A stretch of DNA of 62,958 bases from a virus (Duplodnaviria; Caudoviricetes): IMG/VR virus record IMGVR_UViG_3300044648_000169, positions 1-62,958 of that record; one strand, written 5' to 3'. The notes under the pieces were generated by a model. The model was not told where the DNA came from, did no database searches, and saw nothing but the letters and a program-made list of their open reading frames with translations. The position numbers were made by a program, and so were the translations under genes. Positions 1,848 through 16,483 of this stretch are shown one piece after another (the first letter of the stretch is position 1; every line of letters starts with the position of its first letter).

Positions 1848-2230
1848 CACTGCTCCTTCCCTGCTGTCGCAGGCGGCTCGTCGTCGGCCGGCTTCTGCGG
1901 CCACCACTTCGACTCGCCAACAACGCGAATCGTCGGGCGGTACATGCCGCCAGATAGCGCAGCGCTCATCACCTCGTTGCGGATGCGCTCGCCATCCTCG
2001 GCTGAGGCGTCAACCGGCGCGCTGAAGTCCATGCCCCAACCGCTGTTGGCGCGCTCAATCGGCTGCCACGCTCCCCGCGCCTCATCCAGAGCTTTGGCTA
2101 TGGCGGTGCGCAGGGCGGTGCGGGCTCGTTCCATCTCTTCTTCGGCCTCGGCGCCTTTCAGCACCCAGTCCGTTTGCGCGATGGCAAAGTCGCTCGCCAG
2201 CCGCATCAGTTCGTCAAGGTGGTTGGTCAT
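1847..2230 (-). CDS. hypothetical phage protein
   Basis: Coupled ORF with the WQPIE motif common in nin-type genes. Confidence 0.6.
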   Translation of the reverse strand: MTNHLDELMRLASDFAIAQTDWVLKGAEAEEEMERARTALRTAIAKALDEARGAWQPIERANSGWGMDFSAPVDASAEDGERIRNEVMSAALSGGMYRPTIRVVGESKWWPQKPADDEPPATAGKEQ

Positions 2231-2940: not shown

Positions 2941-3793
2941 TGCTCGCCTCCCCCTCGCTGCCGGCATGGCGAATGCCGAGCCATGCTGCATTCAGCTTTG
3001 ACTCAAGGTGGGCGCGCATACGGGCAAGACCCTCTTGGTTCATATGCCCCTCGCCTACGATGTCCCCGATGATCGACAACAGTTCGTTGTAGTCCGCCAA
3101 CCCCTCCCCCGCTCCACGCTGTGCCTGCCCTGCGGCCTCCACAACACCATCAATGGCCGCTACCGCCCCGCGCCGTGCTCGCCCGTCAGCGACGGGCCCC
3201 AGAAGCGCCTCACGAGCTTGGAACAGTGCTTTGTACCCACCGGCGGGAAGGGCGCCCCACTGCTTGTTGTCGCGGGCCCAGCGGAGCAGAGCGTTCACAT
3301 TGAGGGGCTGCCCTGCGGCTTGCTGGGGGGTGGCAACGCAACGACCTTCAATCTCGCAAGACATTGCATCCGGGCACGTTCCGTGAACCGAGCACTTCGG
3401 CCCCACCGCCTCGGCTTGCGCCCGCTGTGCTGGGGGATGGGAGGCTGCGACTTCGCGCCCCTTCCGGTCAGAGGCGATGAACTTGGCCGCCGCCCGGTAG
3501 CAGGCATTCCAGCCGTCGCGCCAGTCAGGTGGCACATGGGATGCGTCCGGGTGGAACGGCGCGAACTCGTTGCCGACCTTCCAATCCTGCCCCGCCGCTG
3601 GCTCATCGGGGGCGGGCTGAATGGTGCAGTACCGATAGTCCGTGTCGCGGCAGGCGCCTGGGGTGTCGCAGCGGTCGCAATACTTGCGTGGCGCCCCTTG
3701 AGCGGGCTCGGGGGCGGGCTGGGCGCGGAGGGCGGCAGGGGCCTGCTGTCTCGCGTGCTTAAAAAGCGCCTTCAATTGCTCGTTGATGCTCAC
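2933..3793 (-). CDS. hypothetical mosaic phage protein
   Basis: GTG start coupled to the upstream stop; Cys clusters, DGWNAC motif. Confidence 0.6.
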   Translation of the reverse strand: MSINEQLKALFKHARQQAPAALRAQPAPEPAQGAPRKYCDRCDTPGACRDTDYRYCTIQPAPDEPAAGQDWKVGNEFAPFHPDASHVPPDWRDGWNACYRAAAKFIASDRKGREVAASHPPAQRAQAEAVGPKCSVHGTCPDAMSCEIEGRCVATPQQAAGQPLNVNALLRWARDNKQWGALPAGGYKALFQAREALLGPVADGRARRGAVAAIDGVVEAAGQAQRGAGEGLADYNELLSIIGDIVGEGHMNQEGLARMRAHLESKLNAAWLGIRHAGSEGEASNG

Positions 3794-4020: not shown

Positions 4021-4571
4021 GTCTGGCTCCCTTCGGCGGGTGGGTGGGGGAGGGCGGCGCGGGCTTGCCAGACGAACCACGCCAACGACGTTTCCGCTTC
4101 GCGGTAGTCGCCGCTCCTGCCTCGGGTCAGGAGCCATCGCAACTCGTCCAAGCGTTCTTCGTCGCCGTGGTTGCGGTCGAGCCACCACGCCTCAAACGCC
4201 TCTCGCTCCCCCTGCGCTGGCGGCTCCTGGGAGAGGGCGCGCACATGACCGCGACAGTCTTCGAGGATCGCCCTAGCAAACTGCCGCCATCCCCACGCCT
4301 TGCAGAAGCCTCGGATGCCTTCTGGCATGCCCTTCACCACCAAGTCGGCGATGTGGTCGATGCGCTCGTCCGTCAGCTCGGCCGGCCCTGCAACTTCTGG
4401 CTCGCGGGCTAGGGTGGCGATCAACTCTTCGACAACGCCGAACTTCTTCACCAGCGCGTCGCGGACGTCGAACGATTCTTCAGGCGCCAAGCGTGCCCCG
4501 AGTTCGGCGCAAATGTCGTTCAGCGCCTCTTTCGCCGCCTCCGCTGCGGCTCGCAGGGTGTCGTGGGTCAT
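4017..4571 (-). CDS. hypothetical phage protein
   Basis: EREAFEAW...WQARAA motifs typical of nin-type genes. Confidence 0.65.
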   Translation of the reverse strand: MTHDTLRAAAEAAKEALNDICAELGARLAPEESFDVRDALVKKFGVVEELIATLAREPEVAGPAELTDERIDHIADLVVKGMPEGIRGFCKAWGWRQFARAILEDCRGHVRALSQEPPAQGEREAFEAWWLDRNHGDEERLDELRWLLTRGRSGDYREAETSLAWFVWQARAALPHPPAEGSQT

Positions 4572-4819
4572 TGCTGCGGCTCCAGTTCGGGCCCGAGTGG
4601 CATGCAGCCTTCTTCGGGGTAGTCGGCCATGTAGGCGACGTGCTTGGTGAAGATGCGGCGGCCGGTCTCTTCGTCTTTGGTGCCGTCCTCCGGGCAGACG
4701 GCGATGACCACTTCAGCCTCTAGATCGTCGCCTTCGGGCAGGCTGTTCTGGTGAAGCGTGAGCCCGGCGAATCCGGCGAGGTCGATGATCTCGGCAATGG
4801 TCAGTTGAATCGCGCTCAT
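4568..4819 (-). CDS. hypothetical protein
   Basis: Coupled 83-aa ORF. Confidence 0.6.
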   Translation of the reverse strand: MSAIQLTIAEIIDLAGFAGLTLHQNSLPEGDDLEAEVVIAVCPEDGTKDEETGRRIFTKHVAYMADYPEEGCMPLGPELEPQQ

Positions 4820-5058
4820 TGCTTCACTCCATGCTTGGTAAGGGCGGCGCGGGCAAGGTTTCCTATGCGCGGCAGTTCAAGCCAGTCATCTGGCGTGGTC
4901 AGCCTCTCAATCGCCTGCAACGCTTCGCTCAGCGCCACAATGGCCTCGTGCTGGCGGCGGAGTTCGGCGGCGGCTTCGAGCCTCGCGCCAGGCCGGCTCG
5001 GCCATGGCCCTAAAAGGTCATCCGCCAACACCAGCGCCCTGGGCTTTGCTTCACTCAT
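4816..5058 (-). CDS. hypothetical phage protein
   Basis: MSEAKPRAL...AAAELRRQHE motif. Confidence 0.6.
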   Translation of the reverse strand: MSEAKPRALVLADDLLGPWPSRPGARLEAAAELRRQHEAIVALSEALQAIERLTTPDDWLELPRIGNLARAALTKHGVKQ

Positions 5059-13030: not shown

Positions 13031-13309
13031 CTAGGCCTCCAAAGCGGCGCGTTGCTTCTTGGCCCTCACAGCTTTTGGTGCGCCCGGCGCGCTGGCCAGT
13101 TCGGGCCAGATGGTTCGCCAGTCTTGTGGGCGCAGATCCCACCGCATCACCGCCCCGCCTGTCGCGGCCTCAATGGCCGAGCACCGACTTGCGGGCGCCG
13201 GCCTGGTGCCTGCAGCGATCTGGCTCAAGAATGACGACGGGATGCCAACCGCCGCTGCGAGGTCTTTCGCTCGCCCCTTCTGCTTTGCACACCAAGTCTG
13301 TAAGTCCAT
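13031..13309 (-). CDS. cro: Cro/YdaS-like HTH regulator
   Basis: LAAAVGIPSSFLSQIAAGTR...AIEAATGGAVMRWDLRP; divergent from cI. Confidence 0.85.
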   Translation of the reverse strand: MDLQTWCAKQKGRAKDLAAAVGIPSSFLSQIAAGTRPAPASRCSAIEAATGGAVMRWDLRPQDWRTIWPELASAPGAPKAVRAKKQRAALEA

Positions 13310-13315
13310 GTATAG

Positions 13316-13353
13316 ACTTTAGCATTGCAAAGTTTTCGATGCAAGCATTGCTT
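13316..13353 (-). promoter_or_regulatory. PR-like promoter with OR operators
   Basis: TTGCAT-17-TAAAGT overlapping AGCA(A/T)TGC palindromic operators. Confidence 0.75.
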
Positions 13354-13377: not shown

Positions 13378-13980
13378 ATGCATATCGGGGAGCGGCTTAG
13401 AACGCTGGTCAAGGAGCGAGGGGTGGCGGTGAAGGCGTTGGCCTTGCACTGCGGCGTCACTACTGGCGCGGTCTCCAACTGGTTCCGCACCGGGCGGATT
13501 ACGAAGGAAAACCTGCTCGCTGCGGCCGAGTTCCTGGGGACCACAGCCGACGAGGTGATCTCAGGCGCCGCGCTTGATCGGTCGGCGCCCCAGGCGATGG
13601 CATCGCCCGCGTCAGCGCTCAACCTGCTCGCGCGAGCGTTGGCGGGGTTGCCCCGACTAGAGCGGCTTCAACTGGCCACGCTGCTTCCGTTGCTGGCAAC
13701 TGAGCCTGAGACCAGCCGGCAGACCATGCAGGCGATCCTGCGGCTGTTGGGGGCCGACCCCGTGGCCGCCGATGAGGTGGCGCGGGTGGACTTCAGTGAA
13801 CTTGCGCTGGACCTTGCAGAAAAGCTGGACGCCATTCCAGAGGGGCGGCGAGTTCGGGCGCACCGCGCTGCAAGCGTGGCGCTGTCACTGCAGGAGTTTC
13901 CCGACTCTGGCGATGCCACAGGCGACCGGCCCCCACCGCCAGGGCCGCGGCCTGGCTCGGGCTCGCGCAAACCGCGCTGA
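13378..13980 (+). CDS. cI: CI-like XRE repressor without S24 peptidase domain
   Basis: IGERLRTLVKERG...LALHCGVTTGAVSNWFRTG HTH; helical C-terminus with no GDSM/K peptidase motifs. Confidence 0.8.
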   Translation: MHIGERLRTLVKERGVAVKALALHCGVTTGAVSNWFRTGRITKENLLAAAEFLGTTADEVISGAALDRSAPQAMASPASALNLLARALAGLPRLERLQLATLLPLLATEPETSRQTMQAILRLLGADPVAADEVARVDFSELALDLAEKLDAIPEGRRVRAHRAASVALSLQEFPDSGDATGDRPPPPGPRPGSGSRKPR

Positions 13981-14293
13981 GTAGCCCGGCTTGGGCCAGT
14001 GGGGCGATCACGCTGCTCACCTCATCCAACGGCTGCTGGTCGACCAGGAGCACCGCCGGTCGACCGCCGGCCTGGGTCGCCCACGCCTCCAGCAGGAATC
14101 GCACGTCCCCGGGACAGAGTTGGAGCGCATGGCCGGCGTCAACCAGCAGGCACTCAGGCGGGCCGATCAAAAGGGCCCGTGAAATCGCCCGCTCAATTTC
14201 CGCCTCACAAATGCCCTGCTTCAGCGTGATGCGAACAACATCACGATATGGCTGATCGACCGTCCAAGCGTTTGATGGCGCGGTTCGTGGCAT
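13793..14293 (-). CDS. hypothetical alpha/beta (STAS/SpoIIAA-like) protein overlapping the cI 3' end
   Basis: GGGGGAA RBS; pattern VVRITLKQG...LLVDA...PAVLLVD; fold is my inference. Confidence 0.55.
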   Translation of the reverse strand: MPRTAPSNAWTVDQPYRDVVRITLKQGICEAEIERAISRALLIGPPECLLVDAGHALQLCPGDVRFLLEAWATQAGGRPAVLLVDQQPLDEVSSVIAPLAQAGLLSAVCASPSQAAALAVGAGRLWHRQSRETPAVTAPRLQRGAPELAAPLEWRPAFLQGPAQVH

Positions 14294-14346
14294 CAATTCC
14301 CCCTAGTGCTTTCCTGCACATTTTGCGGGGGCGGAAACACTTTGAC

Positions 14347-14366
14347 ACCTAGCAGAATTGCCGTCA
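14347..14366. promoter_or_regulatory. lux-box-like site A
   Basis: ACCTAGCAGAATTGCCGTCA; abuts the luxR1 ATG and overlaps GTGTCA-17-CAAAAT on the minus strand. Confidence 0.55.
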
Positions 14367-15115
14367 TGAAATCCCTACGTGATGTCTTGATCTCGGAGGC
14401 TTTGGGCGGCCTGGGTAGCGCTCAGACGGCGCCGGAGTTCGGCGCCCTCGCGGAAAAGCTCACAGAGGGTTTCGGCATGGATCGGTACATCGTGATCGAC
14501 GTGCGTAACGGCACCCTGGCGGGGCTGCACCACAACGCGCCTGCCCACTTGAGCGCCGACATCGAAAACCTTGCCACCGCGGATTCGGACCCGATCCTCG
14601 GGAAGGCCCGAGTTTCGCGGATGCCATTTGCATGGGGTCGCGGCGACGGCGGCCCCTGGCGCGAGGCATATGGCAGCTTGGGGTATCACTCGGGAATCGC
14701 GGGCGTGACCTGGGACGGCGTGGGCTCCGGTGTCATCGCCCTGTTCTCTTCGGAGGCTGATGGCCTGCCGGAGGAAATTATCGGCTCGCTGCTCGGCTTC
14801 GTGGTGTTGGCGGCCGTGACGATGAGCACGCCGCTGCGCCGTTTGGCGCCCAGACCGCTGGCCGAATGCCCTTTCACGGCGCGCGAACTGGACTGCCTGC
14901 GCTACGCGCTGGCCGGTAAGTCGTCAAAGGAAACGGCGCGCTCGCTGGGCATTGGCGCGCGGACCGTGAACCAATACCTCGAACGAGCGCGCACCAGGCT
15001 CCAGGTCAAGACCACCTACGCCGCTGCCACGATAGCGCTGCGGCGTGGGTGGATCGACATGCAGGAAGCGTCGGAGCTGGCCGGCTTAGTTCCCGCCGCC
15101 ACCGGTGCGCGGTAG
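14366..15115 (+). CDS. LuxR-family solo regulator 1 (autoinducer-binding domain + HTH)
   Basis: DP...PFAW...G..SG pocket; FTARELDCLRYALAGKSSKETARSLGIGARTV HTH. Confidence 0.9.
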   Translation: MKSLRDVLISEALGGLGSAQTAPEFGALAEKLTEGFGMDRYIVIDVRNGTLAGLHHNAPAHLSADIENLATADSDPILGKARVSRMPFAWGRGDGGPWREAYGSLGYHSGIAGVTWDGVGSGVIALFSSEADGLPEEIIGSLLGFVVLAAVTMSTPLRRLAPRPLAECPFTARELDCLRYALAGKSSKETARSLGIGARTVNQYLERARTRLQVKTTYAAATIALRRGWIDMQEASELAGLVPAATGAR

Positions 15116-15169
15116 GTCGGCCGGGTTGTAGTCGCGGATGCCAAGCAGTGCCAGCAGGAAATCAAACAT
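15086..15169 (-). CDS. 27-aa small peptide (absent from ORF track)
   Basis: GGAG-7nt-ATG; MFDFLLALLGIRDYNPADLPRTGGGGN*; downstream of lux-box-like site B. Confidence 0.55.
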   Translation of the reverse strand: MFDFLLALLGIRDYNPADLPRTGGGGN

Positions 15170-15249
15170 GGGTGGACTCCACAGAGGGTTGCGGTCAAAT
15201 CGACCGCTGTCCACTTTGAAGTCCCTAGCACGTTTCGCCTAGCTGCAAA

Positions 15250-15269
15250 ACCTGTCAGGTTTACCGTCA
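15250..15269. promoter_or_regulatory. lux-box-like site B
   Basis: ACCTGTCAGGTTTACCGTCA; 15/20 identical to site A; overlaps palindrome AAACCTGTCAGGTTT (15248-15262). Confidence 0.55.
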
Positions 15270-15287
15270 GTGACAACTGAGGTAGGC

Positions 15288-16004
15288 CTAGTCGATCAAG
15301 CCCCCTTGAATACAAGTGAGCACCGCGCCTTGCACGGAGCTGGCGCCCAGTTTGCGCGCAGCGCTGCGCTGCCGCCGGGCCACCTCTGGCTGGCTGATGA
15401 CCATGCGCTGACCCACCTGCCAGGCGGTGTACCCGTCCTTGGCCCAGCGCAGGCTTTCGAGTTCGCCGGCATCCAAGACCGGGCTACCTGCCGGGGTCGG
15501 GGTAGAAATCCGCTGCAGCGCTGACTGCGCGTGCAGCGTGACCATCTGCACGGCCGCCTGCAGGCGCATGCGGACCACCGGGTCGATCGGCAGCGCGTCC
15601 GGGCGATCGAAGCCCAGCAAGAACTGCTCGAGGTGGCTGGGCTCGTGCACGCTGCACGCTACCCCGCAGCGGTAGCCGAACGACGCCTGCAGATCCCATA
15701 GATCCACCGCGCCCGCTTCGACGTAGGTGGACTGGTCATACAGCACGGGGACGATGTTGGAGCGCAGAGCCCGGATGACCGGATCACGCAGGGCATCGCT
15801 CAGCGACTGCTGTGCCACGACATAGGCATCTGGGGTGTTGCCAACCCCGAGCATCCAGGCATTCGCGGATCCCATGGCGCCGCGGATCAGCACCGCCGAG
15901 AACAGGCCGAAGCCCAGCTCGTGTGCTGCTGACGTCAGGCGGGACCGCAGGGTGTCGACGTCCGGCGACAGTCCTAGATCCAGGAGTTGCTGCTGAGAGA
16001 GCAT
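15288..16004 (-). CDS. LuxR-family solo regulator 2
   Basis: NTPDAY...RDPV...PVLYDQSTY...DLWDLQASFGYRCG; ELESLRWAKDGYTAWQVG HTH. Confidence 0.9.
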   Translation of the reverse strand: MLSQQQLLDLGLSPDVDTLRSRLTSAAHELGFGLFSAVLIRGAMGSANAWMLGVGNTPDAYVVAQQSLSDALRDPVIRALRSNIVPVLYDQSTYVEAGAVDLWDLQASFGYRCGVACSVHEPSHLEQFLLGFDRPDALPIDPVVRMRLQAAVQMVTLHAQSALQRISTPTPAGSPVLDAGELESLRWAKDGYTAWQVGQRMVISQPEVARRQRSAARKLGASSVQGAVLTCIQGGLID

Positions 16005-16010
16005 GGACCG

Positions 16011-16343
16011 CTATTGCGACGGAGTCCCGCCCTGTCTGCAATCGTAGTTGCCCTTGATGTTGGCGAGGTAGTAGCGCCCTAGGGACGGCGATGAACGCCA
16101 CGCCGCCACGGTCTCTGGCGGCATGCGGCAGTAGTGATACCAAGTGCCCTTGAGGTTCACCAGCAGGTAGCGGTCCGACAGCTTCCAGCAGGTACGCCAG
16201 ACCAGCGAGCTGGGTTGCTCCACGCAGTTGAAGCCCTTCAGGTCGACCTCGCCGTGGTACTTCACGAAAACCGTCTCGGCCGACGCGCCCATAGGCGCCA
16301 ACGCGAGCGCGGCCAGCATCACTTTCGTTCTCAGTGGTCCCAT
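16011..16343 (-). CDS. KTSC-domain protein with signal peptide
   Basis: Hydrophobic N-terminus ending ASA; SSLV...YHYCRMP...SLGRYYLANIKGNY. Confidence 0.75.
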   Translation of the reverse strand: MGPLRTKVMLAALALAPMGASAETVFVKYHGEVDLKGFNCVEQPSSLVWRTCWKLSDRYLLVNLKGTWYHYCRMPPETVAAWRSSPSLGRYYLANIKGNYDCRQGGTPSQ

Positions 16344-16403: not shown

Positions 16404-16443
16404 TTCAGCAATGCTTGCCATCAATACTTTGCATTGCTAAACT
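16404..16443 (+). promoter_or_regulatory. PL-like promoter with OL operators
   Basis: TTGCCA-17-TAAACT with the same GCA(A/T)TGCT operators and layout as PR. Confidence 0.75.
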
Positions 16444-16483
16444 CTCTTCCGTCGCACCCAACTTCCCCGCCGGGGATGGTGCG

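Follow-up and report, generated by a model that had tools for sequence, protein, structure and literature searches.

The virus record IMGVR_UViG_3300044648_000169 of IMG/VR, a stretch of 62,958 bp (here called the window) that is estimated to be 97% complete and has about 66% G+C, contains between two genes for LuxR-type regulators a small open reading frame (ORF) which is very probably a real translated gene. The signal is above chance because the ORF, its ribosome-binding site (RBS), a leader structure and an upstream box recur in all seven loci that were compared. On balance, this comparison leads us to favour the reading that luxR1, the peptide gene and luxR2 form a fixed three-part module, in which the peptide would be a translationally gated, regulated output. 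The genes concerned and the Shine-Dalgarno (SD) sequence lie in the window as follows.

14366..15115, plus strand: luxR1, a TraR-like member of the LuxR family (Pfam: GerE 1.9e-11; Autoind_bind 1.1e-3, below the cut-off)
15086..15169, minus strand: small ORF of 27 codons plus TAA (ATG 15169-15167, stop TAA 15088-15086), product MFDFLLALLGIRDYNPADLPRTGGGGN
15177..15180, minus strand: SD sequence GGAG, with a 7-nt spacer to the ATG
15288..16004, minus strand: luxR2, a RhlR/LasR-like receptor (Pfam: Autoind_bind 6.2e-13; GerE 7e-4, below the cut-off)

The small ORF is located on the same strand as luxR2, which lies directly upstream, and overlaps the 3' end of luxR1 by 30 nt (luxR1 TAG at 15113-15115). 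Its GC content by codon position is 0.68/0.43/0.75, and its product consists of a hydrophobic N-terminal stretch, a variable linker and the C-terminal motif P-R-T-G-G. The features that a sequence-only reading of this locus had listed, namely GGAG 7 nt before an ATG, 27 codons, a hydrophobic N-terminus, the 30-nt luxR1 overlap, a hairpin and an upstream box, are all present in the sequence. Within the window alone the small ORF is not above chance: the pattern GGAG-N5-9-ATG followed by an ORF of 20-60 codons occurs 6 times on both strands, compared to 14.4 +/- 3.5 times in 50 first-order Markov simulations. That reading had also called the ORF unannotated, which holds beyond the window, as a 42-aa form extended to a GTG start has no candidate among 5.8 billion predicted proteins. 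The same extended form found no match in PHROGs and Pfam. Four of the peptides gave 0 Pfam families at E<=10 and, with Pfam and NCBIfam combined, nothing except one below-cut-off match (E 0.052) to a small membrane protein model. A full-text search of the literature, which does not extend to the supplements of papers, found no description of such a peptide.

Homologous loci were sought with LuxR1, LuxR2 and alignments of their homologues in viral, metagenome and genome contig collections, and the comparison set consists of the window and six further independent IMG/VR contigs (L002, L005, L006, L015, L017 and L022). Duplicates were counted once. In detail, L003, L007, L010, L016 and L020 are the L002 contig, L009, L014 and L021 the L005 contig, L011, L018 and L019 the L006 contig, and L001, L012 and L013 the window itself. 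The metagenome scan and the genome-contig scan yielded one locus each, L003 (identical to L002) and L004, a metagenome-assembled genome. The latter was dropped as a LuxR1 orthologue, showing only a 36% match in the helix-turn-helix (HTH), and a scan for the motif did not reveal a small ORF of this kind there. A pattern match in L008 was spurious, lying inside a repetitive ORF, and a scan with the box-leader pattern returned no contigs beyond those already known. Across the other loci the identity to the window proteins is 30-48% for LuxR1 and 42-65% for LuxR2, and five of the other records contain no match to a 426-aa ORF of the structural region of the window; the loci therefore do not represent near-identical phages.

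In all seven loci, each carrying a luxR1-like/luxR2-like pair, an ORF of 16-27 aa with ATG, SD and stop codon (TAA or TGA) is found at the same spot, on the luxR2 strand and running towards the 3' end of the convergent luxR1. The SD variants (GGAG, AGGAG, AAGGA or GGAGG) stand 4-7 nt before the ATG, and the spacer sequences differ. The predicted peptides are the following.

Window, 27 aa: MFDFLLALLGIRDYNPADLPRTGGGGN
L005, 27 aa: MLSFLLQLLGIADAPQSQDFPRTGGGA
L015, 22 aa: MVQFFLSLIGVLDLPRTGGGGA
L006, 21 aa: MSIFAALAELFSLPRTGGGGF
L017, 19 aa: MSFFELIAELLGLPYVGGN
L022, 19 aa: MRFFEILAELFGIPVVGGG
L002, 16 aa: MATLFALIFGTPRTGG

They share a common architecture, a hydrophobic stretch of 9-11 residues followed by an optional linker of 0-9 residues, P-x-[TV]-G-G and 0-3 further residues, and the C-terminal motif across the seven loci reads P-[RYV]-[TV]-G-G. 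P-R-T-G-G itself is kept in five loci, where the corresponding 15-nt block varies at 5 columns, all of which are third codon positions, and at none of the 10 first or second positions (chance about 1e-3 for any phase). A second occurrence, MALFPRTGGG at about 1950-1990 (minus strand) of L006, runs antisense in a nuclease-like ORF without SD or nearby stop and was judged to be due to chance.

The convergent genes overlap by 30-36 nt in six of the seven loci, which raises the question whether the LuxR1 tail accounts for this conservation. The overlap is read by luxR1 in codon alignment in the window, L005, L015 and L017 (tails such as ..AATGAR and ..ASISPDVGQT) and with the frame displaced by one base in L006 and L002 (..RRRQYGAG, ..NRRYEAYRK), and in L022 luxR1 and the small ORF abut without any overlap and the peptide motif is kept all the same. 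With the peptide motif constant in spite of these differences, the LuxR1 tail does not explain the conservation. As judged by this comparison, the peptide sequence is under selection, and more strongly so than the LuxR1 tail. The overlap has also left a mark on the regulator gene:

15086..15088, plus strand: Leu codon TTA in luxR1, which is the TAA stop of the small ORF read on the opposite strand (also TTA there in L005)

This codon is the only TTA among the 778 Leu codons of 16 long ORFs in the window. A similar footprint was looked for in 118 full-length LuxR1-like proteins, in 29 of which (related proteins, not independent events) the last 22 aa contain a 5-mer that could result from translating the reverse complement of a PRTGG block, compared to 5.1 +/- 2.2 (maximum 14 in 1000) for shuffled tails. 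It is present in 28 of 58 long-tail and in none of 41 short-tail proteins, 15 times in the aligned phase (e.g. AAGAR) and 15 times in the shifted one (e.g. RQYGA), with one protein showing both, suggesting that the micro-gene may be widespread in the LuxR1 clade. The sequence-only reading had named an ORF that is not conserved in homologous loci as evidence against itself; the ORF with its ATG, SD and stop was found to be kept in seven of seven loci with coding-type substitutions, and a real small peptide gene is therefore strongly supported.

Upstream of the start codon the conservation continues at the level of RNA folding.

15170..15218, minus strand: structured 5' leader, composed of an outer stem and an inner hairpin

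In the outer stem of the window GUGGAC (15214-15209) pairs with GUCCAC (15177-15172, the last SD base plus the spacer), and this stem encloses the inner hairpin formed by GCGGTC (15207-15202), the loop GATTT and GACCGC (15196-15191). The leader has a minimum free energy of -20.3 kcal/mol (z -3.3), and 0 of 200 dinucleotide shuffles were as stable. All seven loci show the same two-tier fold, an outer stem enclosing an inner hairpin of 5-6 bp, over some 50-60 nt ahead of the ATG, with minimum free energies from -19.5 to -34.2 kcal/mol and z values from -2.1 to -6.2, the latter being calculated against mononucleotide shuffles only for three loci and against dinucleotide-preserving shuffles for four. 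In each of the seven, the 3' arm of the outer stem is provided by the SD/spacer/AUG region and the 5' arm lies in a conserved segment, xA[TAC]A[GC]T-G... The arms vary in sequence yet remain complementary between loci:

Window: GUGGAC:GUCCAC
L002: AUAGUGAG:CUCACUAU
L006: GGCUC:GAGCC
L017: GGAGAGU:ACUCUCC
L022: AGUGAGUU:AACUCACU

Two outer pairs of the inner hairpin covary as well (G-C/C-G, C-G/U-A, A-U), and the stem of L015 includes a G.U pair that is possible solely on the peptide-sense RNA. Both stems were recovered by RNAalifold on four sequences, and Rfam contained no meaningful family for 14800-15500. The leader hairpin of the sequence-only reading (15207-15191) is real, but it makes up only the inner part of a larger structure that is predicted to sequester the RBS.

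Between this leader and luxR2 lie a conserved box and a candidate promoter.

15264-15251, minus strand: conserved box GTAAACCTGACAGG, 26 nt beyond the stop of luxR2, possibly an operator or activator site of the small gene
15262-15248, minus strand: 15-bp palindrome AAACCTGACAGGTTT, taken to be the "box B" of the sequence-only reading
15236..15241, minus strand: TAGGCG, -35-like, 17 nt upstream of CAAAGT (read by eye)
15213..15218, minus strand: CAAAGT, -10-like hexamer (xA[TAC]A[GC]T in the other loci), overlapping the 5' arm of the outer stem; putative promoter element

The core of the box, CTG-N-CAG, is kept in all seven loci. The 13-mer TAAAYCTGACAGG has a single occurrence in the window and in each of the records L002, L005 and L006, and with a leading G the 14-mer GTAAAYCTGACAGG can be read from the alignments in four loci. 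A spacing of CTG-N10-CAG is typical of lux-type boxes, and the box is readable in this form in the window and in L006. At 17-18 nt, L005 and L015 show TAGGCA and L002 shows TAGTCA as counterparts of the -35-like element, and TAGGCG might tentatively be taken as the -35 of a weak promoter. A TTGACA following the box in L006 and L002 was rejected as a -35 because about 24 nt separate it from any -10-like hexamer.

In L005 about 1 kb with two other ORFs parts luxR2 from the small gene, and the box, the leader and the ORF stay beside luxR1. The inserted ORFs (L005 3900-4795, minus strand) encode 72 aa with CxxC...CxxC motifs and 95 aa. After them and upstream of the box, a GC-rich stem followed by a TTTTCATT tail can be seen by eye, which was not called by the terminator scan. 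This hairpin with its T-tail is a hint that the small gene may have a promoter of its own there.

Both flanking proteins exhibit the architecture of an autoinducer-binding domain plus a C-terminal GerE/LuxR HTH. In LuxR1 the GerE HTH is good, and the N-terminal domain is weak and non-canonical. The profile of its family matches TraR of NGR234 (2q0o) as the nearest solved structure over the full length, and the protein continues at its C-terminus for about 20 aa past the canonical fold, an extension that carries the small-ORF overlap. For the LuxR2 family profile the nearest solved structures are RhlR and LasR, again over the full length, with the D-P, W and G positions conserved. LuxR1 homologues lie convergent to the small ORF in six of the six other loci, the HTH being kept in all loci; LuxR2 homologues are likewise present in all six, and 46 homologues were found in the protein database. 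LuxR1 has no equivalents of two aromatic residues which we take to contact acyl-homoserine lactones (AHLs), and its clade (P0002-P0040) shows an invariant H-N-x-P where TraR-type receptors carry the AHL-contacting aromatics. Judging from the sequences, the LuxR1 clade may sense something other than an AHL. The LuxR2 of the L002 lineage (2965-3627, plus strand; proteins P0195 and P0196) has the autoinducer-binding domain with an unrelated C-terminus and no GerE HTH; it aligns only over residues 1-169, and the homologues are 208-209 aa long. In the L006 provirus a gene with an XRE-type HTH (4145-4870, minus strand) is located directly upstream of luxR2 on the same strand and heads the luxR2 operon, which is followed by the small ORF; an xre-luxR order of this kind has been published for Aeromonas phages. 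LuxR1, LuxR2 and the locus DNA found no match in the annotated phage collection, and LuxR1 none in annotated plasmids.

The neighbourhood of the module in the window is a lambdoid-type control region, with replication genes farther to the left of the cro- and cI-like genes.

13031..13309, minus strand: Cro/YdaS-like gene of the control region
13378..13980, plus strand: CI-like HTH repressor gene of the control region
16011..16343, minus strand: KTSC-domain gene, to the right of luxR2, in a KTSC-luxR2 operon

Rightwards from cI the order is luxR1 (+), the candidate small ORF (-), luxR2 (-) and the KTSC-domain gene (-). Two segments of 39 nt, at 13314-13352 (in the cro/cI intergenic region) and at 16407-16445 (upstream of the KTSC-luxR2 operon), form an inverted repeat that is 82% complementary and contains many GCATTGCAA-type motifs, and the sole sigma-70-like promoter call of the scan, 16415-16443 (+), falls into the second copy. 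Both copies resemble operator sets, placed on either side of the entire cI...luxR module, and the LuxR module therefore lies between two operator-like sites, adjoining the cI/cro-like genes. In the immunity region of lambda, genes so placed are expressed in the lysogen. A 167-aa ORF (13793-14296, minus strand) without Pfam or PHROG family runs divergently from luxR1 and shares about 190 nt with the 3' end of the CI-like ORF; at the protein level, this ORF and the CI-like protein are conserved in L005 (32% and 37%). The window sequence is present in two soil-metagenome DNA runs, whose contig pieces are identical and hence give 0 variants; in the second run the small ORF is not covered. The host is probably Gram-negative and probably belongs to the Burkholderiales, the sole basis for the latter being the nearest named LuxR2 relative, from Piscinibacter, with 40% identity.

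No proteins other than LuxR1 and LuxR2 are found with the small ORF in every locus. Homologues of the CI-like and the 167-aa proteins are found only in L005 and a KTSC homologue in no other locus; at E<=1e-3 the CI-like protein of the window matches only L005 and the cro-like protein only L005 and L010. A LuxR-induced output, as proposed by the sequence-only reading, is plausible because the CTG-N-CAG box travels with the ORF, even in L005, and because only LuxR1 and LuxR2 co-occur with it throughout. That the LuxR pair controls the peptide is the best-supported reading of its role, which anatomy and analogy leave evenly balanced. In this case the box would be the site of action of one LuxR protein, more likely LuxR1 because its DNA-binding domain is kept in all loci.

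The leader, in turn, would keep read-through transcripts from luxR2 translationally silent, and translation would be allowed by a transcript from the internal weak promoter or by some opener of the leader. With CAAAGT as the -10, the start of transcription would fall at the inner hairpin, and the anti-SD arm would be left out of the message. RNA reading through from luxR2 would contain this arm and be masked; the synthesis of the peptide would therefore depend strictly on activation of the internal promoter. A comparable logic is found in the fold-back inhibition of the IS10 transposase mRNA, where an upstream segment of entering transcripts pairs with the ribosome-binding region and the promoter of the element itself starts inside the pairing segment, so that only its own transcripts are translated. 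Element and gene differ, and the start site here is hypothetical; by this analogy, the fold-back logic is put forward as a tentative proposal.

The peptide itself looks like a docking helix plus a hook, the hydrophobic stretch being probably helical. It would act inside the cell, with the short hydrophobic helix and the P-x-[TV]-G-G hook docking on a protein and changing the regulatory state of the prophage, after the logic of the phage modules of a transcription factor and a small ORF (TF-smORF) considered further on. A type I toxin or small membrane protein was rejected: the hydrophobic run comprises about 10 residues (and the whole L002 product only 16 aa), too short for a secretion signal and for a membrane span, which needs about 18-20 hydrophobic aa, and the only library match, with an E of 0.052, is below the cut-off. 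Several further ideas, drawn from general knowledge, were dropped because motif positions or contexts misfit, namely a sortase LPXTG signal, a double-glycine leader, a microcin C-type precursor, a ubiquitin/Pup-like GG tail and a nascent-chain arrest peptide; among the misfits, nothing follows the GG, one peptide only ends in N and there is no downstream gene.

There are a number of points which weigh against a translationally gated three-part module. The DNA loci number only seven and are all metagenomic, and the evidence on the small gene comes from sequence comparison. The N-terminal half and the linker of the peptide vary much, and R-T of the motif is replaced by Y-V in L017 and by V-V in L022. 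The second half of the lux-type dyad is poorly conserved, being degenerate outside the window and L006, and the distance from the box to the hexamer is 35-36 nt in five loci and shorter in L017 and L022. Consensus scans call neither a promoter nor a terminator at the small gene, the hexamers having been read from alignments. The inner hairpin, being palindromic, might also be bound by a protein at the DNA level; such a role is possible because, apart from the G.U pair of L015, the pairs are Watson-Crick and the inner stem is a DNA palindrome. Finally, the tail footprint is an indirect statistic.

As to the target of the peptide, the conserved motif calls for a conserved partner, which makes LuxR1, LuxR2 or a host protein more likely than the CI-like repressors, these being non-homologous between loci. 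An action on LuxR1 or LuxR2, as anti-activator or co-factor, is a possibility that we hold with less than even confidence, and a conserved host protein is a somewhat less likely target still. Known protein partners of LuxR-type receptors include TraM, TrlR, QslA, QteE and the phage protein Aqs1 (2026 review, PMC13043044); in that part of the review which is considered here the words "peptide" and "small protein" occur 0 times. The likeness is that the review describes small proteins, among them one from a phage, which bind to a receptor of the LuxR type and alter its activity, and that the nearest solved relative of LuxR1 is a TraR crystallised with TraM. In addition, the HTH-less LuxR2 of the L002 lineage brings to mind TrlR, a truncated TraR-like protein that works through heterodimerisation. 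Among the differences are that the peptide shows no sequence similarity to any Pfam family and that partners of the TraM/QslA/Aqs1 type are larger folded proteins. Co-folding of the LuxR1, LuxR2 and peptide alignments, one job without controls, gave a score of 0.03 where the mark is 0.32 and says nothing either way. Improbable in our view is the related suggestion that the peptide is a genetically encoded ligand or allosteric partner of LuxR1, a receptor without the canonical AHL contacts. In this case an AHL-sensing LuxR2 would listen to the host and a peptide-sensing LuxR1 to the phage's own peptide, whose gene would be joined to the 3' end of the gene for its receptor.

Phage TF-smORF lysis modules have been described as XRE-LuxR/smORF in the Aeromonas phages ARM81ld and Apop and as VqmA-Phi/Qtip in VP882 (Silpe et al., Nature 2023, PMC10432266). 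In the sections of that paper considered here, LuxR and XRE of the two Aeromonas phages activate an unannotated smORF of 156 nt (about 51 aa) that inactivates cI, and the published smORFs are said to "lack homologues" (PMC10432266). As in those modules, a phage transcription factor of the quorum-sensing-receptor type adjoins an unannotated small ORF with its own promoter region in a lysis-lysogeny neighbourhood, luxR1 and luxR2 flanking it in the window and in all six other loci, and the logic would run from a sensor TF via a small protein to a switch. The differences concern orientation, the ORF being convergent with luxR1 and co-directional with luxR2 and the published smORF divergent from its TF, and size, with 16-27 aa here and about 51 aa and similar there. 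Furthermore, two LuxR genes take the place of XRE plus LuxR, and the peptide motif is conserved across divergent phages and preceded by an RBS-sequestering leader.

A strict antirepressor of the TF-smORF/Qtip kind, which binds and inactivates the CI-like repressor (13378..13980) and induces lysis, is an unlikely role for the peptide. Every smORF characterised in the sections of PMC10432266 referred to inactivates cI, two of them being driven by phage LuxR and XRE, the module is located in an immunity region beside cI/cro-like genes, and an XRE-type gene heads the luxR2 operon in L006. However, the peptide motif is conserved though the CI-like proteins of the loci show no detectable similarity, and a conserved peptide argues for a conserved target; the known smORFs are moreover about 50-80 aa long, divergent and without homologues. 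Co-occurrence speaks against a target specific to CI, and an anti-activator or co-factor of LuxR would fit it better than a CI antirepressor.

It is also rather improbable that the functional product is the RNA, with convergent transcription from the box and promoter running antisense into luxR1 (or pairing with its 3' untranslated region) and silencing luxR1 through interference or duplex formation, and the ORF being incidental or RNA-stabilising. The convergent arrangement with its overlap in six of seven loci would suit this mechanism, as would the leader structure conserved at the RNA level, and terminator calls between the genes are absent on both strands, so the transcripts probably overlap. 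A pure RNA element would not, however, be expected to show a strict third-position pattern together with ATG, SD and stop kept in seven of seven loci, nor does it account for a peptide motif that stays while luxR1 shifts phase or, in L022, does not overlap at all. The 3' arm of the leader, moreover, sits on the RBS, which is relevant to translation only. Both mechanisms, RNA and peptide, could coexist.

The sequence-only reading had further thought of an arbitrium-like signal. That the peptide is secreted, processed and sensed by LuxR1 as a message between phages we regard as very improbable. AimP of the Bacillus phages carries a signal sequence and is a pre-pro-peptide destined for secretion, and its receptor AimR is of the TPR type. 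A short-peptide gene beside its regulator in the lysis-lysogeny region of a phage is common to both cases, and the two missing AHL-contact residues (whose roles we assume) and the below-cut-off Autoind_bind match of LuxR1 would be in accord with another ligand. A LuxI-type synthase found no match in 5 phage records, where the control was also without match, so that this result is uninformative. On the other hand, the peptides of 16-27 aa have no signal-peptide architecture, with no basic n-region and about 10 hydrophobic residues instead of a long h-region, and genes for import or export (exporter, peptidase, permease) are absent from the conserved module. The receptors are LuxR-type and not TPR/RRNPP, and export would have to cross two membranes because the host is probably Gram-negative. 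In the part of a 2026 preprint on prophage LuxI/LuxR systems that is considered here, peptides are mentioned only regarding arbitrium. The earlier interpretation is thus upheld for the small peptide gene and the leader hairpin and finds no support for the secreted signal. A functionless chance ORF is hardly credible, for although spurious ORFs abound at high GC and short ORFs with SD and ATG are not rarer in the window than simulated, conservation in seven of seven loci at LuxR identities of 30-65%, the coding pattern, the RBS, the leader covariation and the unique TTA all speak against it.

Phage quorum-sensing receptors are known to switch prophages via small unannotated proteins, which are idiosyncratic, without homologues and found singly. 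The favoured module of luxR1, peptide gene and luxR2 would add to these a sequence-conserved family of micropeptides of 16-27 aa, below the limits of gene callers and tied to a dual-LuxR arrangement in otherwise dissimilar temperate phages. It is unusual in that the gene overlap appears to have forced a unique rare codon into a regulator gene, in that a leader predicted to mask the RBS precedes the ORF, and in that the tail signature of LuxR1-like proteins suggests many more members. Overlapping antisense micro-ORFs at gene ends can thus be genuine genes, and the module may offer a cheap experimental handle on how soil phages integrate host signals. If the peptide were indeed a ligand of LuxR1, this would be the first peptide-responsive receptor of the LuxR type, and phages of Gram-negative soil bacteria would possess a decision circuit that handles two signals and is complete in itself.

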